From Nostoc sp. (GTDB lineage Bacteria > Cyanobacteriota > Cyanobacteriia > Cyanobacteriales > Nostocaceae), in assembly GCF_036916985.1 (NCBI RefSeq), contig NZ_JBALFD010000014.1, positions 103,123-167,122 on the forward strand: 64,000 bases of DNA. The letters are read 5' to 3'. A program made the position numbers and the translations under genes. The notes beneath the pieces are model-generated. The model was not told the origin of the DNA. It saw nothing but the letters and a program-made list of their open reading frames with translations, and searched no databases. Shown piece after piece: positions 7,139 through 45,473 of this stretch (position 1 is the stretch's first letter; each line of letters starts with the position of its first letter).

Positions 7139-7256
7139 GACCTCACTTCCATTCCTCTCTCCTAAAAGGAGAGAGGCTTTGAATTTTACTCCCCAACGCT
7201 AGAAGGGAAGGGGCTGGGGGTTAGGTCTGTATTCTATGCAACTGAGAACCGCTATA
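7139..7256 (+). repeat. 118-bp dispersed repeat, second copy
   Basis: Aligns along its whole length with 4396..4513. Confidence 0.85.
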
Positions 7257-7281
7257 AGTAATTAATGGGAGCAAAAATGAT

Positions 7282-8379: not shown

Positions 8380-8386
8380 AAATCAA

Positions 8387-8632: not shown

Positions 8633-8883
8633 CGGTTCTCAATCAAGACGCGATTTATCGCCTCTCTACAATTAGAGAACTCCACAGAATGATTGATCCA
8701 AAAGCTGTCATTGCGTTCGCCCTTGGCGTTCCCGCAGGGTACGAAACGGAGTGTAGCAAAGCAATCCCAAGATTTTGCGGTTGCTTCATTTCGCTTCTCT
8801 ACGAGACGCTACCGCGAACGCTCCATTCGCAATGACAATTGGGCATTTCTTTTTGTGGAGGTCTCTTAGGGTTTTGGATACAT

Positions 8884-9030
8884 TAGACATCTCCAGAAAA
8901 GAAAAAAGACCCCTCTCCAAACCTCTCCGCGAAACGGAGAGAGGCTTTAAAACCCCACTTCCCTTGTAGGGAAGGGGGGTTAGGTCTGCGTGCAAATTTG
9001 TGGTCTCTAAATCTTTTCCGGAGATGTCTA
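8884..9030. repeat. two-hairpin repeat core bracketed by inverted repeats tagacatctccagaaaag / cttttccggagatgtcta
   Basis: Inverted termini read directly. The core resembles the 972..1064 family in reverse orientation. Confidence 0.75.
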
Positions 9031-9038
9031 TTACGCAC

Positions 9039-11774
9039 TTATCCCAATTGATTTGAGATCATACTGACATCAACAGCTAACTTTTTGCCCAACTTAAGCA
9101 ACTGAAGACACTGATTATTTCCTTCATTATCAAGGTTAGTAATACAGACTGGCGCTATCTGACTGTGCAAACAACTAAAGTATAGTTCTTGCGATCGCTG
9201 TAGGGAAACATCAATATTTAGTTGATCCCCGACATCAATCAATCGCTCTAACAGTTGGATATCTGCATTAAAACTACCATTGGCATCGTGTAACAATTGC
9301 CAGAGCGATCGCGCGATTAATTGTTCTAACATCTGCTTACCGTCGGGAATATTTAGCCGACAACGCAGATGTTTTGCTTCAGTTGCGATCGCTTCTAATT
9401 CTAAAATGTGACTCCAACTCTTTTGGGGATCAGCGATATCTTGCTCAAGCGATCGCAATGTCATCAGACAGCGATGCCCCAAAGCAATATCGGCTGCTAC
9501 CTGCAATTCTTGGGGTACTGCGATTTCATCTCGGTGAAACGCCATCAGCACACCGTAATTATCACGGTAGGCTTGAGTATATAACTGTCCTAAACGTGTC
9601 AGTGTTTCCTGACTCAGCAGCCGCATAATCCGGTGGCGTTCTTCAGCAAATAGATTTTGCAAGCTGAAAGCTTCTTCCCCAAATAGCTGCGTCATCGCCA
9701 AGATCGTATGAGCCGCACTAGCTTGTTTTAGTGCCCCAAACAGCTTTTCTTTTAATTGGCTATAGTCACGCCGCCCGGTAAATTGTTGAATACCGCAGTG
9801 GAAATCCCAGCCTCCCAAATGCAGCACCGCAAATACCAAATGCTCACTTTCCCAAGTAATCTCTGATACTAGCTTTAAATTTCCCACAGCCAGAGTTAGC
9901 GATCCCATGCGTTGCAGTTGGTAATCCAACTCATTGGCAGCGTAGCAATAAACCTTTTTGTGGTAACGCTGAGACTGTTTGTCAGCAGCATCTTTTCTCG
10001 GTAGGGAATTGTGTGTCTCTGCTGGTTTCTGACTGGTAAATAGGGAAGTAATGGCGTAATGGGCTGCGACTTGCTTAAATCCAAGTTGGGCAGTTAACAC
10101 AAGTTGCCGATAAATTTCTGCACCGTGTTTGAACTGATCCACATTACTAGGAGCTAAACCAAGGCGTTTGACGAAACCTTTTTCTAACTGCACACCTGCC
10201 ACATCCCCTGCCAATTCTAAAGCACGGGCAGCATAGCGGAGAATTTGCGTCCCCTCTGGACGAGAAATTTCTTCAAAAAACCAACCGCAACTCGTGAACA
10301 TTAACAAAGCGTGACGCTGCATTTCTAATAGGCGCAGAGCGTCTACTTGTTCGGCTGCTGTTAGTTTGTGGGTTTGATGACGGGCTAAGAAACGGTTGAC
10401 ATTACTAGCAGAGCGATCGCGCATTACTTGGATATATTCATCTCGTGCTAACCAGGGATCGCGAAATAACTGTCTACCATGTTCTGTATACACTTCAGTT
10501 AGCTGATCCCGCAGCCAATTTAGAGCATCCCGCAAAGGACGACGCCATTTCTGATGCCAAACACCTCCCTCTCCACCACAACCACAATCATCTTCCCATC
10601 TGCCGACACCGTGGGCGCAACTCCAGGCTGTGACTGACTTCAATTCCACTTCCCAACCAGGAGAATTTAAGCTGAGGTAGTGGGCAAAGTTCGTCACCGT
10701 CCAACCATGTTGAGCAAACTCTTTGGTAAAGGCGTAGGCTAAAGTTTTCTCAGTTCCCTTTTTGTGGTGTCCGAAGGTTTCCCCATCTGTCGCTACTGAA
10801 ATTAACTGTGCTGGGCGATGATCCCCACGTACTGCTGAACCGATACGTCCGGTAAAGCGACTCGAATTATAAACGACATCACTAAAACCCATATCCCGCG
10901 ATATCGGGCCATCGTAGAAGAAAATATCAATGTAAGGGGGGGAGTGGGGAGTGGGGAGTGGGGAGTGGTTACTATCTCCATTCCCTTCCTTGATCGCACT
11001 CAGAGGTGAAGATGAAGTGTCTAATGTGGGCTGCAAATAACAACGATAGGGACGAGTAGAATCAATCTGACTACCGCCGACTTCAATCCATTCAGGATGA
11101 GGATGCTCTGGAGTAGGGAGGGGACGGCAACGCAATGCTTGAGATGGTGCAAGGATAATGAAGCGAATACCCTCAGCAACAAGAGCTTCTAGGGTTGCGT
11201 AGTCTACAGCCGTTTCTGCTAACCACATCCCTTCGGGATCGCGGCCAAAGCGGGAGCGGAAGTCTTCTTTACCCCAGCGAATTTGGGTATATTTGTCGCG
11301 CTCATTGGCCAGAGGCATGATGATGTGATTGTATACTTGCGCGATCGCATTGCCATGACCATCCAGGCGATCGCTACTCTTGGCATCTGCCTCTAAAATC
11401 CGCTGATAAACCTCCACATCGTAGCGTTCTAGCCACGACATCAGCGTTGGTCCAATATTAAAACTGAAATATTCGTAATTGTTGACGATCCCCACCACTT
11501 CGCCTTGATCATTTAAGACTCTGGCAAAGGCATTCGGACGATAGCATTCCCAATGAATCCGCTCATTCCAATCATGGAAAGGTGCAGCGCTCGGTTGGCG
11601 TTCAATTGCGTCCAGATAAGGGTTTTCCCTTGGTGGCTGGTAAAAATGACCATGCACCGTCACGTAAACACCATTAGCCTTTCTCAGGGGATCAGTTTCT
11701 TTGGTGTTATTGGGATCTGAATGTAATGTTAACGTTGAGCCAGAGCTAGCTGGCATTTGGGCAGCAGAAGTCAT
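9039..11774 (-). CDS. glycoside hydrolase family 57 protein with long C-terminal (DUF3536-like) extension
   Basis: The N-terminal 'VHGHFYQPPRENP...FHDWNERI' is the GH57 hallmark. The uninterrupted ORF is 911 aa. Confidence 0.85.
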   Translation of the reverse strand: MTSAAQMPASSGSTLTLHSDPNNTKETDPLRKANGVYVTVHGHFYQPPRENPYLDAIERQPSAAPFHDWNERIHWECYRPNAFARVLNDQGEVVGIVNNYEYFSFNIGPTLMSWLERYDVEVYQRILEADAKSSDRLDGHGNAIAQVYNHIIMPLANERDKYTQIRWGKEDFRSRFGRDPEGMWLAETAVDYATLEALVAEGIRFIILAPSQALRCRPLPTPEHPHPEWIEVGGSQIDSTRPYRCYLQPTLDTSSSPLSAIKEGNGDSNHSPLPTPHSPPYIDIFFYDGPISRDMGFSDVVYNSSRFTGRIGSAVRGDHRPAQLISVATDGETFGHHKKGTEKTLAYAFTKEFAQHGWTVTNFAHYLSLNSPGWEVELKSVTAWSCAHGVGRWEDDCGCGGEGGVWHQKWRRPLRDALNWLRDQLTEVYTEHGRQLFRDPWLARDEYIQVMRDRSASNVNRFLARHQTHKLTAAEQVDALRLLEMQRHALLMFTSCGWFFEEISRPEGTQILRYAARALELAGDVAGVQLEKGFVKRLGLAPSNVDQFKHGAEIYRQLVLTAQLGFKQVAAHYAITSLFTSQKPAETHNSLPRKDAADKQSQRYHKKVYCYAANELDYQLQRMGSLTLAVGNLKLVSEITWESEHLVFAVLHLGGWDFHCGIQQFTGRRDYSQLKEKLFGALKQASAAHTILAMTQLFGEEAFSLQNLFAEERHRIMRLLSQETLTRLGQLYTQAYRDNYGVLMAFHRDEIAVPQELQVAADIALGHRCLMTLRSLEQDIADPQKSWSHILELEAIATEAKHLRCRLNIPDGKQMLEQLIARSLWQLLHDANGSFNADIQLLERLIDVGDQLNIDVSLQRSQELYFSCLHSQIAPVCITNLDNEGNNQCLQLLKLGKKLAVDVSMISNQLG
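10936..10968. repeat. heptamer array (ggggagt)n inside the GH57 coding region
   Basis: gggggggagtggggagtggggagtggggagtgg read directly. It encodes 'HSPLPTPHSP' on the minus strand. Confidence 0.9.
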
Positions 11775-12193
11775 GTATATTCATCCAAAACAAAAAATTT
11801 GCAGTTGCACCGAAAATATTGTGCGTAAACCTTTCTCCAATAGTTTGAACACAAAATCCGGTATAAACAACAACTATGGAATCTAACTAAATTTTTGACA
11901 AAGCGGTTTCATTGTAGTGGGAAATCTGCGTTATCGCACAGCCCTTTCCCTGAAGGCTCAAAATCATTAGCCATTGAATAAAGCCTCAGTTAGGGGTTTT
12001 CTTTTCTTGGGTGCTAATCAAAATTTTAATTGTCTTTTAATATATTAAACCTTATTGCTGGTGTAATATCTTGGCTTAAATTCATACTTTTGCAACAAAA
12101 GATGACAAAAACTCCTTAAATCGCAATCTTATTTTACACAATATCCGCAGTGGCGAACGGAAAACAGTACAATCTCTGAATTGGTCTAGAGGC

Positions 12194-12376
12194 GGTTGAG
12201 AGTATCCTATGGGAGTAGTAAGTGCTGAGTGCTGAGTAGTGAGTGCTGAGTAGGGAGTAGGAAAGCAAAGAGATGCTCCCGATGGACAAGAATAATAACT
12301 TTTAACTCCTAACTCCTAACTCAGCACTCAGCACTCAGTACTCATAACTCAGCACTCCGATAAGATACCCTCAACC
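12194..12376. repeat. about 180-bp imperfect inverted repeat built from STRR heptamers (gctgagt / actcagc)
   Basis: The left arm ggttgagagtatcctat...gtgctgagtgctgagt... is mirrored by ...actcagcactcagc...ataagataccctcaacc. It ends 12 nt before the cax ATG. Confidence 0.85.
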
Positions 12377-12387
12377 CAAAACAAGAA

Positions 12388-13479
12388 ATGTCAACCAAAA
12401 ACATTATTCTTTTCGCTTTACTACTGTTCATCCCGGTTTCTGTCGCAGCCCACTTTCTGGAGTGGGGAGAATTGATAGTTTTCATTACAGCTGGATTAGC
12501 AATTTTGCCCTTAGCAGCTTGGATGGGTACAGCCACAGAAGAAATTGCTGTCGTAGTCGGGCCATCATTGGGGGGCTTGTTAAATGCCACTTTTGGGAAT
12601 GCTACAGAACTAATCATCGCCCTAGTGGCATTGAACGCTGGGTTAATCGATGTAGTCAAAGCCAGTATCACGGGATCGATTATTAGCAACTTACTACTGG
12701 TGATGGGTTTTTCCATGCTTTTGGGAGGACTGCGCTATAAAGAACAGACGTTTCAGCCAATTGTGGCGCGGGTAAATGCTGCTTCGATGAATTTGGCGGT
12801 GATTGCCATTTTGATGCCAACGGCGATGAATTACACTTCTCAAGGAATTAACGAAGAAACACTGCAAAATCTTTCTATTGCTGTTGCTGTAGTATTAATC
12901 CTGGTTTACGCCCTAACGCTGCTATTTTCGATGAAAACCCACTCTTATTTATATGATGTGGGTGTAGCGGAGACAGAAGAAGAGGAAACACCACACGCGA
13001 AACCAAATATGATGTTGTGGATTGGCGTGTTGCTAGTATGTACCTTGCTAGTGGCAATTGAGTCAGAAATGCTAGTAGATTCTCTGGAAGTGGCTACATC
13101 TCAGCTAGGTTTGACGGCGCTGTTTACAGGGGTGATATTGGTTCCCATCGTCGGTAACGCGGCTGAACACGCCACAGCAGTCACCGTGGCGATGAAAGAT
13201 AAGATGGATCTTTCCCTTTCGGTAGCTGTGGGATCAAGTATGCAGATTGCCCTATTTGTCGCACCCGTGTTAGTTATAGCAGGGCGGATATTAGGTCAAC
13301 CAATGGATTTGGATTTCAAACCCTTTGAATTAGTAGCTGTGGTTGTGTCAGTGTTGATTGCCAACAGTATTAGTTCTGATGGTAAGTCCAATTGGCTAGA
13401 AGGCACTTTGTTATTAGCTGCCTATACAGTATTGGGGTTTGCTTTCTACTTCCATCCAGTTATAGAAAGTATAGGGTAG
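12388..13479 (+). CDS. cax: Ca2+/H+ antiporter (CaCA/CAX family)
   Basis: Polytopic membrane protein with the two alpha-repeat signatures 'GNATELIIAL' and 'GNAAEHATAV'. Confidence 0.9.
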   Translation: MSTKNIILFALLLFIPVSVAAHFLEWGELIVFITAGLAILPLAAWMGTATEEIAVVVGPSLGGLLNATFGNATELIIALVALNAGLIDVVKASITGSIISNLLLVMGFSMLLGGLRYKEQTFQPIVARVNAASMNLAVIAILMPTAMNYTSQGINEETLQNLSIAVAVVLILVYALTLLFSMKTHSYLYDVGVAETEEEETPHAKPNMMLWIGVLLVCTLLVAIESEMLVDSLEVATSQLGLTALFTGVILVPIVGNAAEHATAVTVAMKDKMDLSLSVAVGSSMQIALFVAPVLVIAGRILGQPMDLDFKPFELVAVVVSVLIANSISSDGKSNWLEGTLLLAAYTVLGFAFYFHPVIESIG

Positions 13480-13580
13480 TTAACAGTGCGTAGGCGTAGC
13501 CTGTCGTAGACATCGCGAGTCAATTTTAGATTTTAGATTCTTTTGGTTCTAAGCCTCTTTTTCAACCCTTCTGGGTGACA

Positions 13581-13614
13581 CAAATCCAAAATCCAAAATC
13601 CAAAATTTAAAATC
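13581..13614. repeat. STRR heptamer array (aaatcca)n
   Basis: caaatccaaaatccaaaatccaaaatttaaaatc read directly. Confidence 0.9.
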
Positions 13615-13677
13615 TGTTAATTACCCCCTTTTGCCTGGGACAGTGGAAAATAAAGAGATATAAGAGCGATCGCCTGT

Positions 13678-14817
13678 ATGAGCTACTGCCTTAATCCCCA
13701 TTGTCCCAAGCCTGAAAATCCCGATCATGTCAATTTTTGTGTGACTTGCGGTTCTAAGTTACTCCTCAAAGAACGTTACCGTGCTATCAAACCAATCGGA
13801 CAAGGTGGTTTTGGCAAAACTTTCTTAGCTGTGGATGAAGATAAACCCTCCAAACCACGCTGCGTAATTAAGCAATTTTATCCCCAATCCCAAGGCACGA
13901 ACACTCTTGCAAAAGCTGTAGAGTTATTTAATCAAGAAGCGGTGCAGTTAGATGAATTGGGCAAACATCCCCAAATTCCTGAACTACTGGCATATTTTAC
14001 CCAAGAAGCCCGACAGTATCTTGTACAAGAATTTATTGATGGGCAAAACTTAGCCCAGGAATTAGCACATAAAGGGGCTTTTAGTGAAACGCAAATCTGG
14101 CAACTATTAAATGATTTATTGTCAGTTTTGCAATTTTGTCACGCCAGACACGTAATTCACCGTGATATTAAGCCAGAAAATATTATTTTACGTAGCAGTG
14201 ATAGCAAACTAGTATTGGTAGATTTTGGTGCGGCTAAATCTGCCACTGGTACTGCTTTAAATAGAACGGGTACTAGTATTGGTAGTCCAGAATATGTTGC
14301 ACCTGAACAGATGAGAGGTAGGGCTGTTTTCGCTAGCGATATTTACAGTTTGGGTGCTACTTGTGTGAATTTATTAACCCAGCGATCGCCTTTCGATTCT
14401 TATGATACTCAAAACGATACATGGGTTTGGCAGCAATACTTGCAAACTCCGATTAGTAATCCGTTGAGTCGTATTCTGAACAAGATGCTAGAAAGTATTC
14501 CAGTTCGGCGTTATCAAACAGTCGATGAAGTTCTCAAAAACTTAAATCAATACTCACAAGTTGCAGCCATACCAGCGATTGCGGCAAAGCCTATCCCTCA
14601 ACCGCCACCCAATTCTCCACCCGCTTTTTTATCGAAATCTCCTAGTCAACTTGAGAAGGAATTAGAAGAAATGAAAACCCAATTTATGGGTAGCAGTAAA
14701 CCTCAAGCAAATAAAGTACAGCCACCAAAGCCCACATCTCAGCCTCCTAGTACAAATAAAATAGATCAAGAATTAGAAGAATTAAAAGCTAAATTTCTTG
14801 GTAATAACAACCCCTAA
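13678..14817 (+). CDS. Ser/Thr protein kinase with N-terminal 4-Cys zinc-ribbon prefix
   Basis: 'CLNPHCPKPENPDHVNFCVTCG', then 'GQGGFGKTF', 'HRDIKPEN', 'DFG' and 'SPEYVAPE'. Confidence 0.9.
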   Translation: MSYCLNPHCPKPENPDHVNFCVTCGSKLLLKERYRAIKPIGQGGFGKTFLAVDEDKPSKPRCVIKQFYPQSQGTNTLAKAVELFNQEAVQLDELGKHPQIPELLAYFTQEARQYLVQEFIDGQNLAQELAHKGAFSETQIWQLLNDLLSVLQFCHARHVIHRDIKPENIILRSSDSKLVLVDFGAAKSATGTALNRTGTSIGSPEYVAPEQMRGRAVFASDIYSLGATCVNLLTQRSPFDSYDTQNDTWVWQQYLQTPISNPLSRILNKMLESIPVRRYQTVDEVLKNLNQYSQVAAIPAIAAKPIPQPPPNSPPAFLSKSPSQLEKELEEMKTQFMGSSKPQANKVQPPKPTSQPPSTNKIDQELEELKAKFLGNNNP

Positions 14818-15090
14818 AATACACTATGACTTATCTCCTAAACCTTATTTATGTTAAAACTTAGAGTTTTTTAAAAGATATATTTATGTAGGTTGGGTGG
14901 AGTGAAACGCAACCCAACATTACCACCAAATTTTATGTTGGGTTACGCTATTGCTGCACCCAACCTCCAAAACTACGGTTCTCAAGGTAGACGAGGTTTA
15001 ACAGACTATGGTGTATATACATCTCCGTGTAAAACAAAAATCGTTATAGTAAGTTCTAATATAGGTAATTTTTTTAAATGCTAAAAAAAT

Positions 15091-15987
15091 ATGAAGATTT
15101 ATAAACTTTTAATTATCTTGGTAGGAGCGATCGCACTCCTTACCAGCGCTGGTTATTATTATGTATTCATCTTAGGCGCGCCCCAACTAGACCCACCCCA
15201 AGAAGAGGCCAATACTGGGCTAAAGTTTCAATTAACTAGCTTCAACTCCCAAGCGATGGGTGCAATCCGTAATTACGGCGTGATTTTGCCCCCTGGTTAT
15301 AGCAAAAATCCGCAAAAGCGATACCCTGTAATCTTCTTGCTACACGGTGGTCATGATGATGCCCGTGCTTATGTTGATAAATATGCACTCTTAGACGTAC
15401 TGCATGAACTTTATCAAAGTCAAAAATTACCACCATCGATTGTGATTACACCCGATGGTAATGATAATCGCGGTTCCAGTCCTTTATATGACCCCGATTA
15501 CTTTGATGGGGCAAATGGTAAAGTGGGAACTTTAATTGGGTCAGAATTAGTGCAAGTTGTCAAGTCGCGCTACCGCACTTTAGAAAAACCCCAGTCTTGG
15601 GCGCTGGGAGGTTTGTCTTCTGGAGGATGGGGGGCTTTTAATATTGGGTTACGGCATCTTAACAACTTCCAGATATTGTTTAGCCATAGCGGTTATTTTA
15701 CCGATAACAGTGGTTCACAAAATAGTCCCCAACAAATTGTGCAGCAGCTATCACCCCAAGATCGGAAGCAATTGCGTGTTTACCTGGATGCGGGTATGAA
15801 CGATAGTAATTTACTAGCTTCTACCAAAGCTTTTAACGAAACCTTGAATCAGTTAGGCATTGCTCACGTATTTTATGCGTTTCCTGGAGGTCATGGTTTG
15901 TCTGGTGCAGATATCGGCTGGAACTACTTTCACAAACATCTTAAAGATTCGCTATCGTATGTAGGTGAACAGTTTAAAAAAAGTTAG
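15091..15987 (+). CDS. putative esterase (alpha/beta hydrolase, esterase-D/enterochelin-esterase-like)
   Basis: N-terminal TM helix, 'YPVIFLLHGG', and the nucleophile elbow 'GLSSGG'. Confidence 0.75.
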   Translation: MKIYKLLIILVGAIALLTSAGYYYVFILGAPQLDPPQEEANTGLKFQLTSFNSQAMGAIRNYGVILPPGYSKNPQKRYPVIFLLHGGHDDARAYVDKYALLDVLHELYQSQKLPPSIVITPDGNDNRGSSPLYDPDYFDGANGKVGTLIGSELVQVVKSRYRTLEKPQSWALGGLSSGGWGAFNIGLRHLNNFQILFSHSGYFTDNSGSQNSPQQIVQQLSPQDRKQLRVYLDAGMNDSNLLASTKAFNETLNQLGIAHVFYAFPGGHGLSGADIGWNYFHKHLKDSLSYVGEQFKKS

Positions 15988-16094
15988 GAGTTAGGAGTTA
16001 GGAGTTAAGAGTTTTAACGCCAAAACAAATGACCAATGACCAATGACCAATGACCAATGACCAATGACCAATGACTAATGACTAATGACCAATA
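15983..16094. repeat. two adjacent STRR arrays, (aggagtt)x3-4 then (atgacca/atgacta)x9
   Basis: Counted directly. ATGs occur every 7 nt from 16029 to 16085, and the last unit supplies the start codon of the next gene. Confidence 0.95.
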
Positions 16095-17755
16095 ATTTAA
16101 AAACTCAGATTGGACTTTGGAGTGCGGCATTCCTTACAGGTTTAGTCGGAGTAGTAAATTTGTTATCAGCAGTGACACCTAATCTGTATGGTAGAAATCA
16201 CTGGTTGAAGGAATTTTTGCCATTTGATATCCGGGCCAGTGGTCATGTATTTACAGCCCTAACTGGGTTTATTTTACTAACACTTGCTACTAACTTATTA
16301 CGCCGAAAAAAAATAGCCTGGTTGCTTACCATTGGTTTACTAGTAATTTCCATTTTCAGCCATTTGCTGAAGGGATTGGACTATGAAGAAAGTCTACTCT
16401 CTGGAGTTTTACTGGGACAATTAATCTTGATGCGTCATTATTTCACGGCGCAGTCAGACCGTCCTTCTATCGCACGGGGAGTCAGAGTACTTATAGGCGC
16501 TTTATTATTTACTCTGGCATATGGAACTATTGGATTTTATTTGTTAGACGGCAAATTTTCCGAGAATTTTAATTGGCGTGAAGCGATAATTCAGACTTTG
16601 GCGATGTTCTTCACTGCGGATAATTGGGGACTGCAACCAAAGAGTCGATTTGGAGAATTTTTTGCTAACTCCATTTATATTATTGCAGGAGTTACTATTG
16701 CTTATGCAATGCTAATGTTATTGCAACCTGTGTTTTGGGGGAATCTAGCAACTACAAATGAGCGAAAAAGAGCTAAAGAAATTGTTGAGCAATATGGATG
16801 TTCTTCTTTAGCAGCGATCGCACTCTTAAATGATAAGAGTTATTATTTCAGTCCTTCTGGTAACAGTGTAATTGCTTATGTTCCCAAGGGACGGGGTGCG
16901 ATCGCTTTAGGAGATCCCATTGGCCCTGTTGAAGACCGCAAAGAGACAATTGTTGCTTTCCGAGAGTTTTGCCAGCGTAATGACTGGTATCCTGGCTTTT
17001 ATCAAACTTTGCCCGATGATATTGAGCTTTACCAGTCATTGGGGTTTAGAGTACTCAAGATTGGAGAAGAAGCGATCGTTGATCTGAAAAGTTTTACGTT
17101 ACAAGGTAAAGCCGGCAAAAACTTTAGACCATCAATCAGTCGTTTAACTAAACTAGGATACAGAATCGACTTTTACCAACCACCTATCGCCAATGATTTA
17201 TTGCACCTCCTCAAACCTGTCAGTGATGAATGGCTAAAGATGGTACAAGGTTCGGAAAAACAATTTTCTTTGGGTTGGTTTGATGAAGCCTACCTGCGAG
17301 AGTGCGAGATTGCTGTAGTGCATAATCCTGAAGGTCAGATCAGCGCCTTTGCGAACATTCTCCGGGAGTACCAACTCAACGAAGCCACTATTGACATGAT
17401 GCGACATCGCTCATCTCTTGAAAATGGCACAATGGACTTTTTATTTATTTCCCTACTCCAACATTTTAAAGAGGGTGGCTACGACAGCTTTAATTTTGGT
17501 CTTTCTGCCCTTGCGGGAGTTGGAGACAACCCAGAATCACGCCGCTTAGAAAAAGTATTGCACTATCTTTATGGGCACTTGAATCGCTTCTACAACTTCA
17601 AGGGATTGCACGCTTACAAAGAGAAGTTCCGCCCCCGTTGGGAACCGCGTTATTTGGTTTACCCCAGTTTAACCGCCTTACCGGATGTAGTTGTGGCATT
17701 GATTCGCGCAGATTCAGGCGATCGCCTCTTCGATTATTTCAAACCCGGAGCATGA
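16085..17755 (+). CDS. MprF-like phosphatidylglycerol lysyltransferase-domain (DUF2156) membrane protein
   Basis: Six to seven N-terminal TM helices followed by a soluble domain ('SVIAYVPKGRGAIALGDPIGP...') resembling the MprF C-terminal synthase domain. Confidence 0.7.
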   Translation: MTNNLKTQIGLWSAAFLTGLVGVVNLLSAVTPNLYGRNHWLKEFLPFDIRASGHVFTALTGFILLTLATNLLRRKKIAWLLTIGLLVISIFSHLLKGLDYEESLLSGVLLGQLILMRHYFTAQSDRPSIARGVRVLIGALLFTLAYGTIGFYLLDGKFSENFNWREAIIQTLAMFFTADNWGLQPKSRFGEFFANSIYIIAGVTIAYAMLMLLQPVFWGNLATTNERKRAKEIVEQYGCSSLAAIALLNDKSYYFSPSGNSVIAYVPKGRGAIALGDPIGPVEDRKETIVAFREFCQRNDWYPGFYQTLPDDIELYQSLGFRVLKIGEEAIVDLKSFTLQGKAGKNFRPSISRLTKLGYRIDFYQPPIANDLLHLLKPVSDEWLKMVQGSEKQFSLGWFDEAYLRECEIAVVHNPEGQISAFANILREYQLNEATIDMMRHRSSLENGTMDFLFISLLQHFKEGGYDSFNFGLSALAGVGDNPESRRLEKVLHYLYGHLNRFYNFKGLHAYKEKFRPRWEPRYLVYPSLTALPDVVVALIRADSGDRLFDYFKPGA

Positions 17756-18006
17756 ACTACTCATACTGCTACGAGCTACATCTACACAACTTGGCATTTT
17801 TGTGATACAATTGTACTATAAAAGTATGAATGTCCGGTGAGTATGCAGCGCGAAATTTACCAGACATGCCCAAAACTTGTAGTAAATGAACGCCCATAGT
17901 AGCTAGTAGTCTGTCCCATTAATTTTGTTGGGCTGCTAGATCCCCGACTTCTTCAAGAAGTCGGGGATCTGAACACCACTAACCTCTCAAAACTTTTGGG
18001 AGGTTA

Positions 18007-18033
18007 GAGAGACGCGATAAATCGCCGTCTCTA
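18007..18033. repeat. short hairpin repeat gagacgcgataaatcgccgtctc
   Basis: The same 23-mer occurs at 50476..50498 and 53001..53023. Variants are at 63141..63208, 19596..19620 and inside smc at 27529..27554. Confidence 0.85.
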
Positions 18034-18084
18034 CAGGGAATTGAATTTTGAATTGTTAATGACCTTTATGTAGAAGGTAGCAAT

Positions 18085-19476
18085 ATGACGAATAATCAAA
18101 TTTCTCTGGTAGAATTAATCCAAATTTTTACACAGTACCGCAACAATATTATCGTCAATATCAAGCACCTAGAAGAACATTATCAAAGAACAGGTATCAA
18201 GCGTGTTAAAGGTGTTAGAAACGAAAATGGGGAACTGCTTAAACCTTGGTTAAGAACAGAATATATTGATAATGCTGAGTATGTAAGTATGGGCGATTTT
18301 CAGTTTAATCGCAATACTGCTACTCTCAATATGCTTATCAAACGTAAAGTCAAACTTGCCAAATTTGAAGACAAAACCCCTACTATTGAGGTAGCAGGTT
18401 TGCTAGTGACTGACCTCAATACCTTTAATAACTATACAATTGTCAGTGACGGCAAAATTAATGTAAAGTCTTTAGTAGTCAAAATCAGCAGTAAAAAAGC
18501 CTTTGACTTACTCAAAGAAAAAGGAATACTGGATGCAGAAGAATTTGACTTCCGTGCTGAACATACCATTCAGTTAGATGACTTGCCCCTTGTAGCTGCT
18601 AATAGTTATTACAGCAGCATTGATGGACTATTCAATGAACTAGCAGAAATTAAAGTACTTGTTAGTATTATTTCTGCTCACTTAAGAAAGGAGTCAGATG
18701 TATTTGTAGCAGGACAGTTAGATGAGTTTAAAAAGCACTATCTGTCTAAAAATGTTTACATTAACTTCCCTACAACTAATGAATACACAGATATTCATGA
18801 AGCTTTAGTTAATGGTACTATTGAGTCAAGATTGAGCTATAAAATTGATGTCGGTAGTCAAGATATTCTTAACCTCAGTAAGTTTCATTCTGCTAACAAG
18901 TTTCTGAATAAAATGTATCGTCTTTATGATAGAATAACTGGAGAAATTTTCATCAAGCCTAGTTTTGAGATGGCATTGAATGAAAATCTTGCTTTTCGGC
19001 ACAGGCTATTATCATCACGCACCAAGATTACAAAAGTTGACGAATTGATGAAACCAATTTTTGATGATTTTCTTGGACTTGAGCAAAATGGTATTGTTGG
19101 AGGTATTCTTAAGAAAGTTGGTGCTGATAGTTTGGCGCAGTTATTTCAGGAGAAACAAACTGGTAAGCAGATCAACAAAGAGGAAATGGTTGCAGCTTTA
19201 ACAGTGGCAAATAAAAAGTTAGAACAATATGCAGAAAATATCTACCAAGATAAAATATCTCCCTTGGTATTTTACATAGGTTCTACTGGTTTATTGCCAG
19301 ATCAAATGCAAGCAATAGCTATGACGGCTGAGGAAGCTGCTGCTAAATACCCAAATTTGCAATTTTCTAAAGATGAGCAAGAAGGTACTTTTTTTGCAGT
19401 TGACGATAGTATTATCAGCATCTATGTAAAAACTGAATATTACAGCAAACTTATTTCTGTAGGTGTAGACAATTAG
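18085..19476 (+). CDS. hypothetical protein (463 aa, orphan)
   Basis: Long clean ATG ORF, AT-richer than its neighbours. No motif recognised. Confidence 0.6.
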   Translation: MTNNQISLVELIQIFTQYRNNIIVNIKHLEEHYQRTGIKRVKGVRNENGELLKPWLRTEYIDNAEYVSMGDFQFNRNTATLNMLIKRKVKLAKFEDKTPTIEVAGLLVTDLNTFNNYTIVSDGKINVKSLVVKISSKKAFDLLKEKGILDAEEFDFRAEHTIQLDDLPLVAANSYYSSIDGLFNELAEIKVLVSIISAHLRKESDVFVAGQLDEFKKHYLSKNVYINFPTTNEYTDIHEALVNGTIESRLSYKIDVGSQDILNLSKFHSANKFLNKMYRLYDRITGEIFIKPSFEMALNENLAFRHRLLSSRTKITKVDELMKPIFDDFLGLEQNGIVGGILKKVGADSLAQLFQEKQTGKQINKEEMVAALTVANKKLEQYAENIYQDKISPLVFYIGSTGLLPDQMQAIAMTAEEAAAKYPNLQFSKDEQEGTFFAVDDSIISIYVKTEYYSKLISVGVDN

Positions 19477-39562: not shown

Positions 39563-39934
39563 CTATCCGCGCCTAATTGGTAGAATACGCACTCTGGATT
39601 GGGCTTGGTCAACAGTGACCAATGCGCCTGTCTCTAGTGAAGACTCAAACTGATTCAGGGCTGAAATAACTAGATTTTCTATACTTTTTGGCAAAACATC
39701 CTGGGTACGAACCTGAATAACACTAGGAGTATCGACACCTGTCGCAGCTAGCAGGGAACCAAAGTCTAAATCGTGAGTAAAGACGATATATCCATTAGTT
39801 CTTGCCCACTCCATAATTATTGAATCTTTCTCACGGGGATCGCCAACCGTAGACCAGTGGACAGCAGCAATATTGTACCTCTCAAAAACCGCAACCCAAT
39901 CAGGAGAAAGGTTCATATCAATCAAAATTTTCAT
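39563..39934 (-). CDS. DUF5615 (Mut7-C/PIN-like) putative toxin, full length (123 aa)
   Basis: 'MKILIDMNLSP......IMEWARTNGYIVFTHDLDF' is the family core. It overlaps the upstream DUF433 gene by 4 nt. Confidence 0.7.
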   Translation of the reverse strand: MKILIDMNLSPDWVAVFERYNIAAVHWSTVGDPREKDSIIMEWARTNGYIVFTHDLDFGSLLAATGVDTPSVIQVRTQDVLPKSIENLVISALNQFESSLETGALVTVDQAQSRVRILPIRRG

Positions 39935-40161
39935 GCACTTCTAAGAGGAACTTCAATCTCTTCAGCCCGCCATGCAGCGTAGGCAAGTGCCTCATAGATG
40001 TCGGCTTCTTCGAGGTAGGGATACGCTTTGAGGATGTCGCTATTACTGTGACCAGATGCCATTAAGCCGACGACAGTTCCAACGGTGACACGCATTCCCC
40101 GAATGCAGGGTTTACCACCCATCACTTCAGGATTGCGAGTAATTCTAGTGAGATTTTGCAT
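39931..40161 (-). CDS. DUF433 putative antitoxin
   Basis: 'ITRNPEVMGGKPCIRGMRVTVGTVVGL...G.S...IL.AYPYLEEADI.EAL.YA' is the typical DUF433 sequence. Confidence 0.8.
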   Translation of the reverse strand: MQNLTRITRNPEVMGGKPCIRGMRVTVGTVVGLMASGHSNSDILKAYPYLEEADIYEALAYAAWRAEEIEVPLRSA

Positions 40162-40238: not shown

Positions 40239-43200
40239 TCAATCTTCTTGAGAAAGAATTAAATTTAGAATATTCATTTCTTTAGACTGGAATATTTGAT
40301 TTTCATTAAATAGGTTTTTACCTAATTTATCCATTGCACCACTATTGAAAACTACGTAAGGAATATTTTGATAATTAGAGTCAATAGGCAAAATATTATA
40401 TGCTAAAGCAAGTGTAGAAACGTACCGAGCTAAAATATCCCGTAAAGACAGATTATCAATTTTTCTCTCATTTTCAAAATAATCTTCAAAAGCCTGAAAA
40501 GATAAAAATGTCTGTATAGGTAAAGCATAATAACGTTCTGACGAAAGAGAAGTTTGGGTTAATTTTTGTGAGCGTTCTAATTCACTAAAAATTGTTCTAG
40601 TCAAGTCTATTAAAGAATAAGCAGCACTAATAATTTGTTTTGGATATTTTCCTGACTTTACTAAAAGTTGAAGTTGTTTGATAAAATCTTCATTTCGCTT
40701 TTGATCGAGAATTTTTTCTAAGTCAATATAATTAGTTTCTTTAACTAGTTTCTCTGATAACGGTACAATGAGTAAACTACCTCTAACGTATGTTTTTTCA
40801 ATTGGTGGTAGACTCAGTAAATTATCAAGGCTAGTCTCAATTTTTGATAAAAAATTAAATCCAATTGAAACATAGGATACTTCTTGAGTTTCAGAAAGTG
40901 ATTTATTTTGAGAATAAGGGCTGATTTGAGTTTTTTGAATAGAAAGTAATTCAGATAAATTTTGCTCTATATTTTTCAAGATATTATCTCTAGGTTGTTT
41001 TTTTACCTCCTTTTGAATTTGCCGTAATAATGTAGCCAATGTACCAATAAATGTCTCCCCTGCTTGGCTAATTGCTTTACCACCAATAGGAATAATAACG
41101 TATCGTTTTCTACCAATTTCCCCTGATCCCATAATCCGGGTCATAATAGATGCTTTCAGGATAATCAGAATATTTAATACATTCAGACAAGCTTCTTTTA
41201 ATGAAAGATTTGTAAGTTGTTCTGATTCAGCAGCACTTAAACTTTTTCCATTATCATCTACTTTTTTTGGGTAGTATATCGCTTTATCAGACAAGTAAAA
41301 ATTTAAATATTTACTACCCTTGTCTAGTTCACCACCTCGCCCACGGTAAATTACTTGGATAATTTCCATCAAATTTTGCTCAATTTGAAAGCTAGGTATC
41401 TGCACAAGAATATATTTAGTTTGGGTAAAAGATAGACCGCGAGATGCAGAAGCAGTCATAAAAACTACTTTGACTGTATTTTGGTATTTCTGAATTTCAG
41501 CTTCTTCTTTATCTGATAAACTGGCATGTATTTCTAAATATTCTTGATGCAGAGTAAAGCTAGGTCTTAGCTGATAAATTTTAGTAATTAATTGCTTGAG
41601 AGTATCTTTATTTTGGATATAGACTATAATCTGCCCATCATTTTCATCTAGCAATTTTAAAATATCTTCTTCAATTTTTTTAGCTACCTTAGTATCTAAA
41701 GTAAAAGTTTCATCTGTAATGTCTTCTGAGCTTAGTGACTGGACAAATATGTGATAATTAAATATCAGCTTGTCAGCAGGGTAAGAATTTGCATTTATCA
41801 GACTTGCAGGCTTACTCAAAAATTGAAATTCATTAAAAGATAAACATTGACCAACTGAATCTGAAACTTGTCTAACAAATATTCTATCTCCCTGAATTTG
41901 ATTTTGGGAAAGATGATTTTCAACTACGTCTTGTATTGTCAGTGACGCGTCAGCAGTAATCACTTTCAGATTAAAGCCGTATTCAGGATTTAACAAATCA
42001 TATTCTTCAACAAAATCTAAAACGCCATGTAGAAAAGCAACTCCCTCTTGGGAACCTGTAATTTCGTCAATCATAATGAAAATATTTTTCATCCGACTGG
42101 CGATTTCTTTCATCTTCTTTGGAATAATCCCAGGAGGCTTTTTAGAAGAATTATAAGCACTACTAAATATTCTACCGAAATGCTTTAAAGTATTACCGTA
42201 GCGAGTTTCCTTTAAAGACTGCATTGAGGCTGTAGCAATAATATTATTAGGTAAATCAGGATTAATGATACAGGTGTGAATTGCTTCACACAAACTTGCT
42301 AAGACTCCAACCTCACGTGGTTTTTCTACTTGTACCAAGTTATCTGTACGTCTAACCAAGCGACTAGGAAAGTCAGATACTTTGTCTTTTAAATTTCTAG
42401 CATCTAAAAATTTTACTTGCCCTATTTGATGTTCGTCAGTCAGGTTATTATTATAGTACTCAATAACGTAACCTCCATTGGCATCATCAAGTATTCTTTT
42501 ATTGGTATTAATACAAATTAAATTGTCCGAAACTAATTTTAAGCTATTTTCCTCTGTAAACTTGTCAATAATATCTCGGTTAACCTGAATTCGAGGACTG
42601 ACGTATATTAGCATTGAACCCTCATGCAAGTGGTCAATAATTTGCTTTGCAACTGCTGTAGTTTTACCAATTCCAGGATTCCCCGTCAAAAACAGCAATG
42701 GTATTCTAGAATCTGCAAGGGTTCGATGTATCAACTCTGCATGAGCATTTCTAAATTCTGTTTCTTTTAGGTCTAGCGATCGCTTAATAGATTCAGGTAC
42801 AATACCGGCCGTATTAAAAAAATCTTGCCCTGCTTCAAATACTTCAGTATTTTCGATATAATTTATTGTATCTTTTTTTGTTTCAACTATATCTTTGACA
42901 AACCTGTTGCCATCCTGAAAGTTTCTAGCTGCATTACTTTTAATGACTTCAAGTAACGTGTTCCGGCTGTCATTAATATCTTTGTCACTCTTATTTTTGT
43001 ATATTTCATAACAATTTTTTAAGATTTCCAGGCTATTTTCAGCATTGTCTTTTTCTTTAGTCAAAGCAATGCCGTTAATCATTCTGTCACTATAGCCAAA
43101 GCAATTAAATTTAACTGCATCAGTTCGTGATATTTTACCTGATGACAGTAAAAATTTATAAAAACTCCAAGCATAACTAGAAGCTTGGATAACCTTCACG

Positions 43201-43949
43201 GCTTCCTTGTCTTTAGTCTTGAAAGCACAGAAGAAGCGAGTCAATTCTTTAGAATATATCTCGTTAAGTTTATTGTTATTGTCGCTACTATTTCCAGTAT
43301 CGATACCGAGTCCACAAAAACTAGACTTGGAACGCACATAATTTAACTCAGTATTTAATGATTCTACCAAACTTTGAATGTTATTTAAATCAGTTATAGA
43401 ATGAATAGCTGAAGTTGTAAAAGTGGATAAGTCTACAACTAAAATTCGATACTTACCCATGTACCGCAGCAATAAGAGAGTATCTGCTTTGAGAAATTCT
43501 CCACCATCCATATAACGGCTAATATCTACGTTTTCAAAGCCCTGAATTTCTAAAATTTCCTTGTAGCAGTCAGGAGGATATCTCTCTAAATTTTTGATAC
43601 CAAAGGCATTTTCATTGTGGAAATCACACTGAAAATAGATAATTTCTATTTTGCTTTTAGTTAGCCAGCCAGATGCTTCTATATATTCTCGCACAAAGCT
43701 GTAGCCCGAAGTCCATCCTTTTTGAATAAATAATTTTACCCAGTCACCAATAATTTCTTGATGAGATTTATCTATGAAATTATTAGCTATAGACTTTTGG
43801 ATATTATGCAAATATAACTTACTTAAAGGCTGAAGATAAACATCGCCGTAGTAATGTTTTAACTTGGAATGCTGAAAGTAAGTTAAAATGCCGATATTAA
43901 AACTTATTTCAAATACTCGACCTAAATTAATGCCTAAATCATTTACCAT
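40239..43949 (-). CDS. 1236-aa helicase-like P-loop NTPase of unknown family (core of the AT-rich island)
   Basis: AGGAG lies 7 nt upstream of the ATG at 43949. Ordered motifs are 'LTGNPGIGKTT', 'IMIDEITG', 'ITADAS', 'FMTASASRGLSF' and 'QVIYRGRGG'. The N- and C-terminal thirds are unassignable. Confidence 0.8.
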   Translation of the reverse strand: MVNDLGINLGRVFEISFNIGILTYFQHSKLKHYYGDVYLQPLSKLYLHNIQKSIANNFIDKSHQEIIGDWVKLFIQKGWTSGYSFVREYIEASGWLTKSKIEIIYFQCDFHNENAFGIKNLERYPPDCYKEILEIQGFENVDISRYMDGGEFLKADTLLLLRYMGKYRILVVDLSTFTTSAIHSITDLNNIQSLVESLNTELNYVRSKSSFCGLGIDTGNSSDNNNKLNEIYSKELTRFFCAFKTKDKEAVKVIQASSYAWSFYKFLLSSGKISRTDAVKFNCFGYSDRMINGIALTKEKDNAENSLEILKNCYEIYKNKSDKDINDSRNTLLEVIKSNAARNFQDGNRFVKDIVETKKDTINYIENTEVFEAGQDFFNTAGIVPESIKRSLDLKETEFRNAHAELIHRTLADSRIPLLFLTGNPGIGKTTAVAKQIIDHLHEGSMLIYVSPRIQVNRDIIDKFTEENSLKLVSDNLICINTNKRILDDANGGYVIEYYNNNLTDEHQIGQVKFLDARNLKDKVSDFPSRLVRRTDNLVQVEKPREVGVLASLCEAIHTCIINPDLPNNIIATASMQSLKETRYGNTLKHFGRIFSSAYNSSKKPPGIIPKKMKEIASRMKNIFIMIDEITGSQEGVAFLHGVLDFVEEYDLLNPEYGFNLKVITADASLTIQDVVENHLSQNQIQGDRIFVRQVSDSVGQCLSFNEFQFLSKPASLINANSYPADKLIFNYHIFVQSLSSEDITDETFTLDTKVAKKIEEDILKLLDENDGQIIVYIQNKDTLKQLITKIYQLRPSFTLHQEYLEIHASLSDKEEAEIQKYQNTVKVVFMTASASRGLSFTQTKYILVQIPSFQIEQNLMEIIQVIYRGRGGELDKGSKYLNFYLSDKAIYYPKKVDDNGKSLSAAESEQLTNLSLKEACLNVLNILIILKASIMTRIMGSGEIGRKRYVIIPIGGKAISQAGETFIGTLATLLRQIQKEVKKQPRDNILKNIEQNLSELLSIQKTQISPYSQNKSLSETQEVSYVSIGFNFLSKIETSLDNLLSLPPIEKTYVRGSLLIVPLSEKLVKETNYIDLEKILDQKRNEDFIKQLQLLVKSGKYPKQIISAAYSLIDLTRTIFSELERSQKLTQTSLSSERYYALPIQTFLSFQAFEDYFENERKIDNLSLRDILARYVSTLALAYNILPIDSNYQNIPYVVFNSGAMDKLGKNLFNENQIFQSKEMNILNLILSQED

Positions 43950-44337
43950 AAAGCGCACTCCTAATTTCGGTCAAAAAGGCTAAGTTATTAAACTTAACAT
44001 TCTTCACCGAGTAAGTATAAGTAGATATTTTACCGATACCTTCGTCACCAATTAGTTTACTATAAGGGTTCAGCTTGAGAGCAATATTTCGATTTACTTC
44101 GTATGGAGAAAAATGAAATAAAGCAATGTATTGTAAAATCGTCTTTTGTAAAGGCGAATCTTTATTTAATAACCCTTCTATAATATCTTTCGTATCACCT
44201 AAGTTATAAATATTTAATAAAGTACTGTAACAAACTACACTATTAAATATAGTCCGCTCTTTATCTACAGAACGGCCTGTAAAGAGGTTGAGAAAAACTC
44301 TGGTTTGTTGGCTTTTATCCACAGATAACTTTTCCAA
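43939..44337 (-). CDS. hypothetical protein (ORF c of the island, with no ATG codon anywhere)
   Basis: A 132-codon open frame in AT-rich DNA. The only start option is TTG at 44337. It overlaps the NTPase start by 11 nt and ORF b by 73 nt. Confidence 0.5.
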   Translation of the reverse strand: MEKLSVDKSQQTRVFLNLFTGRSVDKERTIFNSVVCYSTLLNIYNLGDTKDIIEGLLNKDSPLQKTILQYIALFHFSPYEVNRNIALKLNPYSKLIGDEGIGKISTYTYSVKNVKFNNLAFLTEIRSALYGK

Positions 44338-44837
44338 TGATTAACAGGCTTATCAAGTAAATAACTTACTTCATAATCGGGATCATCTAAATCTGGATCG
44401 TTGATATAATTTATTAATAATCTCAGCCGCTTAATTAATGTTTCTAAACATGCAAAACCCTGTGCATTTGAATTATGTAGACTAGTTTTTGCACATTCTA
44501 TTCTCAAATAATCCAAATAATCTATTTTGATATCTCGTAGTAGTCTCGGAAGAGATTCAGTGTCTACTATTTTTTGAAATTCAGTAAGTTCAGATTCTTT
44601 TTGCTCTGATATATTGTCTAAAATTTCTGTCAGCTGTTGCCAATCTTGTGAATCGGGTCTACTTATAGTATCTATGTAGCTTTTAAGGCTCTCTAAAAGC
44701 CTACTATTAAAATTAGATAATGGTGTGCAAAGATTGTCTAAGGAAGATTGAGTTTCGTTTTCTCCACAAGCAGTAACAAGTTGTCTTCTCAATTCATCTC
44801 TAATGGCTTGGATTTTAGAATAAAATTCTGTTTCCAA
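44265..44837 (-). CDS. hypothetical protein (ORF b of the island, with no ATG codon anywhere)
   Basis: A 190-codon open frame whose only start option is TTG at 44837, 1 nt after the stop of ORF a. The predicted protein looks helical and acidic. Confidence 0.5.
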   Translation of the reverse strand: METEFYSKIQAIRDELRRQLVTACGENETQSSLDNLCTPLSNFNSRLLESLKSYIDTISRPDSQDWQQLTEILDNISEQKESELTEFQKIVDTESLPRLLRDIKIDYLDYLRIECAKTSLHNSNAQGFACLETLIKRLRLLINYINDPDLDDPDYEVSYLLDKPVNHWKSYLWIKANKPEFFSTSLQAVL

Positions 44838-44838
44838 C

Positions 44839-45078
44839 TTAAAAATTTACGGTTGCTGCTTTAATACCTATATTCTGTGTTAAAGGACTTTGTGGACGTT
44901 GATTGGTATTGGTAGCAATTTCATAAACTGAGATTCTGAGTTTATTTCCATCTGGAGAAAATTTAAATAGTGGTTTTTGTTTAATTAATTCTAAAATTTT
45001 GTCTAGTAATGGAATGTAATCTAATTTTGCTAATGGATTTCAGCTTTCCTCAATAGAATGTCTTGATGTTGATGTCAT
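44839..45078 (-). CDS. ORF a of the island: ATG-initiated, 80-codon frame interrupted by TGA at codon 13
   Basis: My own translation is MTSTSRHSIEES-TGA-NPLAKLDYIPLLDKILELIKQKPLFKFSPDGNKLRISVYEIATNTNQRPQSPLTQNIGIKAATVNF-TAA. It is missing from the ORF track because no start codon follows the TGA. Confidence 0.35.
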
Positions 45079-45473
45079 GATGCAACCACTGTTTAGAAAG
45101 ATTTCAATTTTGTGACTTACCCTAAAAGATTGATGCACTTAAACAGCAGCCAACAGAGTAAGCTGGCAGAATGAATTCTGAGTTTGTAAGACTTATCTTA
45201 TAACCCAAAAATTTTAATTCAGCCATATCGTTAGTTTTGAAGACTTACGCTTATCTGGTGAATATTATAGTATAAATGTACCAAAAAATTGCTTTTGAAA
45301 AAAAGTTTAAAATTCTTAATTTTTAGTAAAATAGTTTGTTAATCAATTTGGTAAAAAAGTGCTTTCAACTGTAAAGTAGTGATGCCTACGGCGGCAAGCT
45401 ACGCACCTACACCCCAAATTTCACAAGTGCGTAGCCGTAAGGCTTGTCCTTAGACATCGCACTCTCAAAGTTA

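Follow-up and report, generated by a model that had tools for sequence, protein, structure and literature searches.

A decayed partner-helicase cassette in Nostoc sp.: probable remnant of an undescribed system with a predicted Argonaute-like protein and a candidate nuclease-helicase

Plasmids are eliminated in Vibrio cholerae by DdmDE, which is made up of DdmD, a helicase-nuclease, and DdmE, a long-C prokaryotic Argonaute (pAgo) (bioRxiv 10.1101/2024.05.10.593530). ApsAB, an antiplasmid system of E. coli ST38, pairs the helicase/nuclease ApsA with the Argonaute-like ApsB, and its family includes cyanobacterial members (PMC11096173). The PIWI-RE islands encode PIWI-RE, a DinG-type helicase and a protein with a restriction-endonuclease fold (Burroughs et al. 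2013; PsPIWI-RE, PMC10991935), and in cyanobacteria a long-A pAgo has been described together with ACE1, a Cas4-family nuclease (PMC12094033). Here we analysed a stretch of 64,000 nt from Nostoc sp. (contig NZ_JBALFD010000014.1, positions 103,123 to 167,122; hereafter the window), which at 40239-45078 carries a helicase gene preceded by the remains of a second gene, referred to as the partner. We propose, with a probability of roughly 0.55, that a system not yet described, combining an Argonaute-like protein with a nuclease-helicase and likely directed against plasmids or phages, is represented by this block in decayed form. DdmDE, ApsAB and the PIWI-RE/DinG/restriction endonuclease islands are the closest in kind, and membership in none of them is demonstrated. 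A literature search, which was not exhaustive, retrieved no description of this partner-helicase family.

An earlier reading made from the sequence alone (the sequence-only reading) had taken the block for a four-gene system of packed open reading frames (ORFs), three of them separate genes upstream of the helicase. The packing was found as described, with overlaps of 11 nt and 73 nt and a gap of 1 nt between the helicase gene and the ORFs 43939-44337 (132 aa), 44265-44837 (190 aa) and 44839-45078, but the last of these is interrupted by an in-frame TGA at codon 13 (45042-45040). Close homologues of the helicase are immediately preceded by one gene of about 1035 aa, whose end overlaps with the start of the helicase gene over 11 nt (locus L001 in our numbering). 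When an intact 1036-aa Nostoc protein was compared with the window by tblastn, aa 2-81 aligned to 45069-44842 and, after a change of frame, aa 81-305 to 44843-44340; aa 905-1036 matched 44337-43942 with 82.6% identity, while aa 306-904 had no counterpart. At the DNA level, the window from 46061 to 39501 is collinear with Nostoc sp. C117 (L006, where the intact pair occupies 6910-13711) at 92-96% identity except for two deletions, both inside the partner gene, one of 171 bp in frame and one of 1780 bp out of frame. The same two junctions were obtained against six more Nostoc genomes, where the partners are intact (1034-1063 aa). The 1780-bp deletion takes out aa ~306-904, comprising the linker, the MID-like region and most of the PIWI-like region. 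The junction of the 171-bp deletion is formed by 16 nt that can be aligned with either side, suggesting that this deletion was microhomology-mediated. The nonsense codon in fragment A, followed by a frameshift at about 44842 that leaves fragments A and B in different frames, brings the lesions of the window partner to four. The TGA of fragment C overlaps the helicase ATG by 11 nt, the same overlap as in L001, L002 and the Bacillota locus L087.

Because the fourth ORF is not open, the fragments map to one protein and the deletions lie inside its gene, the block consists of one intact helicase gene and one partner pseudogene, not of four genes. The alternative of a single fused upstream gene, also raised in the sequence-only reading, was right as to the number of genes, but the gene encodes ~1035 aa and not ~400 aa. 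With its partner a pseudogene, the window copy is decayed and thus unlikely to work as a system. In the annotation, the small ORFs are best combined as a single pseudogene, and the locus is to be left out of counts of active systems.

The helicase gene, for which a GTG at 43958 offers an alternative start, encodes an N-terminal domain of ~400 aa, a core of superfamily 2 (SF2) type at aa ~420-880 and a C-terminal region of ~350 aa. It has full-length homologues with identities from 97% down to 39%. The Pfam family Helicase_C was matched at 28.8 bits against a gathering score of 23.5, and in 15 of 15 members examined; the other matches were weak P-loop matches near aa 420. GNPGIGKT, DEIT and QVIYRGRG are invariant or nearly so among the homologues, and the five motif strings quoted in the sequence-only reading were all present in the order given there. 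As judged by its Walker A, Walker B and Helicase_C motifs IV-VI, the protein is assigned to the SF2 helicases. Searches of PDB sequences with single sequences and three profiles yielded nothing of use, SMUBP-2 being matched at E 0.009 over Walker A/Ia only. The ratio of nonsynonymous to synonymous substitution rates (dN/dS) against Nostoc orthologues was 0.13-0.19, equal to that between genomes with intact pairs; with a value of about 0.14, the window helicase evolves under purifying selection. The equality, established in a pairwise comparison of little power, led us to reject relaxed selection on the orphaned helicase. The coordinates of the features are collected in Table 1.

Table 1. Features of the partner-helicase locus and of the adjacent toxin-antitoxin pair, in window coordinates (HSPs, high-scoring segment pairs; AF2, AlphaFold2).
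Feature	Coordinates	Strand	Evidence
Helicase gene, intact, 1236 aa from ATG	40239..43949	-	ORF; homologues; Helicase_C; dN/dS
Helicase N-terminal domain, aa 1-~400, possible PD-(D/E)xK / Cas4-like nuclease	42750..43949	-	AF2, Foldseek, alignment
Walker A GNPGIGKTT, aa 423-431	42657..42683	-	Invariant in 15 homologues
Walker B DEIT, aa 628-631	42057..42068	-	D628 and T631 invariant, E629 nearly
Helicase_C, aa 762-869, with motif V FMTASASRGLSF and start of motif VI QVIYRGRG	41343..41666	-	Pfam; invariant columns
Partner pseudogene, fragment A, aa 1-81	44842..45078	-	Translation, sequence, tblastn
Partner pseudogene, fragment B, aa 81-305 minus 57 codons	44340..44843	-	tblastn, DNA alignment
171-bp in-frame deletion junction	44704..44719	-	blastn HSPs share 16 nt; L006 7295 and 7451
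1780-bp deletion junction	44338..44339	-	blastn; window 44339 = L006 7831, window 44338 = L006 9612
Partner pseudogene, fragment C, aa 905-1036, end of PIWI-like region	43939..44337	-	tblastn
Toxin-antitoxin pair, DUF433 antitoxin-like (76 aa) and DUF5615/PIN-like (123 aa)	39563..40161	-	Pfam E 5e-26, 2e-25

With regard to the partner, searches of Pfam, NCBIfam, PADLOC and PDB sequences gave it no name. Two structures were modelled, that of an intact partner and that of the N-terminal domain of the helicase. For the partner, P0121, the AF2 model had a mean predicted local distance difference test score (pLDDT) of 76 and a predicted template modelling score (pTM) of 0.63. When it was compared with the PDB using Foldseek, the 35 best matches were all Argonaute or PIWI proteins, among them TtAgo, Siwi, RsAgo, hAgo2, MILI, EfPiwi, KpAgo and a MID-PIWI fragment of QDE-2. 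They aligned over 340-1090 columns at 7-11% identity, with Foldseek probabilities of 0.23-1.00 (at least 0.82 for the first 19). Below the Argonautes came TM1739 (RNase H-like), NurA (2ygk) and TdpAB (8wfd_G) at E 0.4-0.7. The model places a Rossmann-like alpha/beta unit (aa ~611-741) before an RNase H-like unit (aa ~752-1036), which is the MID-PIWI order, so that in its predicted fold the partner has the architecture of MID plus PIWI. Q708-G709 of the MID-like unit is invariant across three phyla. K736 is invariant in the cyanobacterial set and K, Q or R in the wider cyanobacterial and Bacillota-type set, the proteobacterial copies not being alignable. The spacing of Q708 and K736 matches that of the Q and the second K of the Argonaute 5'-end pocket, and the best segment of a non-significant hhalign comparison with a pAgo alignment put Q708 on TtAgo Q433 and N725 on N449. 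The PIWI-like unit has conserved residues at D763, E781 and H979. As for the haloarchaeal Piwi-domain proteins used for the pAgo alignment (on Haloferax and Natrinema plasmids, L096 and L097), a protein of the phospholipase D family comes after them, and AAA/UvrD genes flank them.

The AF2 model of the helicase N-terminal domain had a pLDDT of 76.6, and Foldseek returned no significant match for it (best E 0.24 in the PDB and 0.08 in BFVD). The named matches below threshold were mostly PD-(D/E)xK enzymes in both libraries (Cas4 SSO0001, RecE, lambda exonuclease, HinP1I, phage Cas4-family exonucleases, herpesvirus UL24 and proteins named PD-(D/E)XK). Eight helicase N-terminal regions with 21-25% identity to the window were aligned; their sources were cyanobacteria, a genome of Bacillota (L087), a contig resembling Lactobacillales (L088) and two metagenome contigs of no assigned origin (L089, L090). 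E14, D156, D173, D217, K248, K252, Q255 and Y259 were invariant among them. The canonical (D/E)xK was not seen in this alignment, in which Q255xxxY259 is invariant. The domain appears a reasonable candidate for a Cas4/RecB-like nuclease, for which we judge the chances to be about even.

Next we compared the pair with described systems. Pfam, NCBIfam and PADLOC searches with the window proteins, intact partners and the Bacillota and proteobacterial copies recognised only P-loop and Helicase_C, and PADLOC-DB v2.0.0, tested with cyanobacterial, Bacillota and proteobacterial copies, gave only marginal matches of P-loop type (mad8 E 0.001-0.009, Csf4/DinG E 7e-4). The PADLOC check proposed in the sequence-only reading thus matched no named system. 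Its view of the block as an uncharacterised, defence-like helicase system holds as to the missing name and the context, but the copy at hand is decayed. Nor is the system without precedent, the predicted fold of the partner being Argonaute-like, which places the system beside DdmDE, ApsAB and PIWI-RE in kind.

The likeness to DdmDE lies in two genes, one for an SF2 helicase of ~1200 aa with a presumed nuclease and one for an Argonaute-fold protein that lacks, in the present case apparently, a canonical DEDX tetrad, and in the expected logic of Argonaute-like recognition and destruction by a helicase-nuclease (bioRxiv 10.1101/2024.05.10.593530). At E up to 10 among PDB sequences, the helicase profile missed DdmD and the partner profiles missed DdmE; no PADLOC model matched, and none of the 50 best Foldseek matches listed was given as DdmE in its description. 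The nuclease is C-terminal in both DdmD and ApsA, whereas the candidate here is N-terminal (aa 1-400, the part of the helicase covered by the model), although a C-terminal nuclease like theirs is conceivable. Walker A is found at aa ~429 here, whereas the ATP-binding lysine of DdmD mutated by its authors is K55. The Argonaute-like gene comes first here, which apparently reverses the order ddmD-ddmE, and the partner, with ~1000-1060 aa, is substantially longer than DdmE (~700 aa).

ApsAB is similar in that a large helicase is paired with an Argonaute-like protein missed by sequence searches, and the conserved QG ... K of the MID-like domain recalls the Y-x3-K...QG...K of ApsB (PMC11096173). The cyanobacterial members listed for that family are other proteins, ApsA-like ones of ~1315 aa with Walker A near aa 45 and ApsB-like ones of ~770 aa (PMC11096173), and when our helicase and partner profiles were compared by hhalign with the N-terminal 399 aa of these ApsA-like and ApsB-like proteins, the probability was 0.1%. 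Moreover, the ApsB-like genes were taken as coding sequences downstream of apsA, whereas the Argonaute-like gene here lies upstream of the helicase, and the RNase H fold predicted here was reported not to be conserved in ApsB (PMC11096173).

The pair resembles PIWI-RE in the linkage of a helicase and a nuclease-fold module to a divergent PIWI protein of bacteria whose N-terminal region is unique and replaces PAZ/N; should the helicase N-terminal domain be a nuclease, a single protein would unite helicase and nuclease here. Pfam holds pPIWI_RE models, and Pfam scans down to E = 1 of 14 diverse partners and of helicases gave no PIWI-type or pPIWI_RE-type family. There are two genes here as against three, the separated R and E residues that define PIWI-RE were not identified in the partner, and the partner is ~250 aa longer than PsPIWI-RE (~784 aa, from the deleted region of 5-2352 bp; PMC10991935). 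The cyanobacterial long pAgos likewise have an Argonaute fold working with a Cas4/PD-(D/E)xK-type enzyme (PMC12094033), but they are recognised by sequence and possess DEDX, whereas the partner goes unrecognised and its DEDX is apparently absent.

The helicase family comprises more than 485 clusters at 90% identity. In a scan of one genome per GTDB species, relatives of the helicase occurred in 339 species genomes, of which the best 80 were all cyanobacteria. A profile search of 1.84 billion representatives gave 350 relatives of the partner, and a further homologue search from the partner alignment led back to the same 56 proteins. Among 82 non-redundant loci, 62 have both genes intact and next to each other in the same orientation, most of the others being cut by contig ends, which bears out the expectation in the sequence-only reading that upstream genes co-occur with the helicase: the partner sits directly upstream in other genomes. 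The helicase gene usually overlaps the partner gene by a few to about 20 nt. When all neighbouring ORFs were clustered, only partner and helicase were common to the different contexts. The conserved unit is therefore a widespread two-gene cassette. One protein of 2028 aa (P0213, on a 6.7-kb ENA metagenome contig) joins a partner to a helicase-like P-loop region, possibly as a result of a frameshift or assembly artefact.

The cassette is found in varied surroundings. In Gottfriedia sp. (Bacillota, L087), a partner of 1039 aa and a helicase of 1223 aa overlap by 11 nt, near genes with the Wadjet-associated JetD_C domain and DUF6063 (14964-19120). On the Lactobacillales-like contig (L088, 1148-9592) the pair stands directly after a complete Wadjet operon (DUF2397, DUF2398, SbcC_Walker_B, DUF3323+DUF2399) and an integrase, and TniQ and a PIN protein accompany it on another contig. 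On an Acinetobacter plasmid the two proteins have 1191 and 1327 aa and are matched by hhalign with a probability of 100% over the full length of the helicase and of 84% for partner aa 566-1006. This distant proteobacterial version of the pair, on the Acinetobacter piscicola plasmid pYH12207-1 (L093, 8956-10962), is followed by an HNH endonuclease gene, PtuB-like according to PADLOC, and one for a WYL-domain protein, which may be an added effector and regulator. A Cupriavidus plasmid, where the pair is judged by ORF sizes and a single tblastn match alone, has a helicase relative with 23% identity over aa 252-1200, preceded by an ORF of 1094 aa. Several cyanobacterial copies also lie on plasmids, paralogous clades of the cassette co-exist within one genome, and the copy of Calothrix NIES-2100 is located beside Tn7-like genes and PglZ. 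In one Nostocaceae subclade the cassette is next to purQ, fur and Band7 genes. It was AT-richer than its flanks in all 37 loci measured (37/37), by 2 to 11 points. This genomic context would fit an accessory, defence-like element.

In one Nostoc subclade (L014, L015, L023, L025, L028, L029), N6-methylase-like ORFs and a RelE/ParE-like ORF lie on one side of the cassette and a 620-aa ORF for a TraG/VirD4-like coupling protein on the other, identities being assigned by eye; an integrated conjugative element would fit this context. Microcoleus-type genomes (L056, L063, L067) show the tandem order partner-helicase-partner, which likely represents two cassettes in a row.

Decay of the cassette is asymmetric. 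Besides the window, the helicase is intact with a broken partner in five loci (L002/L017, L004, L020, L030 and L034) or with the partner missing in four (none nearby in L059, L082 and L085), and no clear reverse case was found. In L019 the partner is fused in frame to the helicase. The partner having been lost repeatedly while the helicase was kept, either a cost of the partner or an independent role of the helicase is suggested. Directly upstream of the orphan helicase of a Xenococcaceae metagenome-assembled genome (L082, 6920-9691) there is a gene for a TIR-NB-ARC-TPR protein of 923 aa.

By analogy with DdmDE (bioRxiv 10.1101/2024.05.10.593530) and ApsAB (PMC11096173), the cassette may work as follows. 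Gene 1 of the relatives encodes a protein of ~1000-1060 aa, the C-terminal half of which is predicted to be MID plus PIWI (RNase H-like), and gene 2 an SF2-type helicase of ~1200-1240 aa, whose conserved N-terminal domain of ~400 aa is a possible PD-(D/E)xK/Cas4-like nuclease. The Argonaute-like protein, probably not a slicer, would bind a short nucleic-acid guide, recognise the DNA of an invading plasmid or phage, and recruit or release the nuclease-helicase; the helicase would then translocate on the invader DNA while its nuclease domain degraded it. In the window strain such a guide-directed system is most likely non-functional, since the partner is destroyed and the helicase alone survives. 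That the helicase persists there may be due either to a recent loss of the partner or to a separate function of the helicase. The more specific proposal, that the partner represents a previously unrecognised Argonaute-like lineage, missed by sequence profiles and forming, with its N-terminal-nuclease helicase, a guide-directed anti-plasmid or anti-phage system that arose independently in parallel to DdmDE, ApsAB and PIWI-RE, is tentative, and we give it somewhat less than an even chance.

If the Argonaute-like reading holds true, the combination of Argonaute-fold targeting with helicase-nucleases would be more widespread and more diverse than current catalogues indicate, and one such family would be common in filamentous cyanobacteria, where barriers to plasmids and phages limit genetic work. 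Defence-system finders would gain two new profiles. On the more specific proposal, the fact that the Argonaute-like gene was lost repeatedly while the helicase was retained would point to a costly targeting subunit or a second role of the helicase. The cassette would also offer a new test case for how catalytically dead Argonautes pass their targets to motor nucleases, and for how such systems decay.

Several results weigh against the reading of the block as the remnant of an Argonaute-like and nuclease-helicase defence system. The Argonaute likeness of the partner is seen at the level of the predicted fold alone, with low Foldseek TM-scores (0.15-0.33), and the PIWI-like part is the least confident in the model (aa 840-1010). 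A Pfam scan of the 14 diverse partners at E up to 1 gave no Argonaute-type family, PDB searches with partner profiles gave no Argonaute sequence match, and hhalign was not significant against either TtAgo or a six-sequence pAgo alignment (probability below 1%, 0.2% for the latter). The positions of Y/R and of the first K in the MID pocket (693, 697) are variable or His. No canonical DEDX tetrad, which only slicing pAgos need, is recognisable, as judged from equivalences read without a structure-based alignment, and a canonical slicer site is doubtful since the position expected for the second catalytic Asp, after beta-4, holds K, Q, H, N or D. In addition, the nuclease assignment stands on sub-threshold matches (best E 0.08), no relatives of the cassette were found in a scan of viral contigs, many cyanobacterial copies occupy stable chromosomal positions, and the helicase often remains intact where it has no partner, so that a function of its own is possible. 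The partner could instead be a guide-independent nuclease or scaffold with an RNase H fold, of the NurA/TdpA type, in a HerA-NurA-like or TdpAB-like machine still serving defence. This we regard as rather unlikely. NurA, TdpAB and TM1739 do appear in its Foldseek list, the strongly conserved D763, E781 and H979 could form a non-canonical active site, and the MID pocket lacks conservation in its Y/R-K half. However, these proteins rank below the Argonautes, the 35 top matches being full Argonautes except for the one MID-PIWI fragment, and since the Argonaute alignments are too long, an RNase H core is insufficient by itself to account for them. The Rossmann-like unit stands before the RNase H-like one, which is how MID and PIWI are ordered, and the Q...N...K motif aligns to the MID pocket of TtAgo, in an hhalign segment that is itself non-significant.

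A role for the pair outside defence, as housekeeping proteins in chromosome maintenance (replication termination, decatenation or repair) such as has been proposed for TtAgo and PsPIWI-RE, seems more improbable still. It would agree with the stable syntenic position across seven other Nostoc genomes and, next to purQ, fur and Band7, across the Nostocaceae subclade, with the purifying selection on the helicase and lack of copies on viral contigs, and with the effects of PsPIWI-RE deletion on cell division and ciprofloxacin sensitivity (PMC10991935). Against this stand the patchy distribution over three phyla, the plasmid copies and co-existing paralogous clades, AT-richness relative to the flanks at every locus measured, copies beside Wadjet, Tn7-like genes and a TIR-NB-ARC protein, and frequent pseudogenisation, the window included. 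As for a novel system of four components encoded by four separate genes in this genome, the ORFs of 132, 190 and 1236 aa are indeed open and tightly packed, but we consider such a system scarcely credible: the split architecture is seen in none of the 82 loci, and what lies upstream are three collinear remnants of a single gene in three frames. The four-gene reading was rejected on the stop in the fourth ORF, the tblastn mapping onto one protein and the DNA alignment to Nostoc sp. C117, where two deletions separate the window from an orthologous locus of 92-96% identity.

The sharp compositional break seen in the sequence-only reading is borne out by the GC content, which is 0.318 in the block, 0.44 in the 5 kb to the left, 0.39 in the 5 kb to the right and 0.408 in the whole window; in sliding windows it ranged from 0.27 to 0.35 across about 40250-45250 and from 0.41 to 0.49 on both sides. 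The further idea of a recent islet in this genome does not stand, because seven other Nostoc genomes hold the cassette at the same position. The neighbours had been correctly named: a MalK-like ABC ATPase and, confirmed by Pfam as the expected toxin-antitoxin module, the DUF433 and DUF5615/PIN-like pair on one flank, and a 250-aa alpha/beta hydrolase and a flavodoxin on the opposite one. Scans of the window or locus for Rfam families, tRNAs, promoters and terminators gave nothing relevant. The DUF433/DUF5615 pair is outside the conserved partner-helicase pair. It aligns in the Nostoc loci L006, L021 and L009, and the DUF433 gene also in L091, whereas L007, L010 and L018 have other, non-aligning DNA at this site, so that the toxin-antitoxin pair appears to be polymorphic in its presence or absence, independently of the cassette. 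In five loci (L007, L009, L010, L001 and L031), two CP43/IsiA-like genes of the photosystem II family lie between the 250-aa hydrolase and the cassette; the window is without these two genes, which represents a further local insertion or deletion in the isi region.

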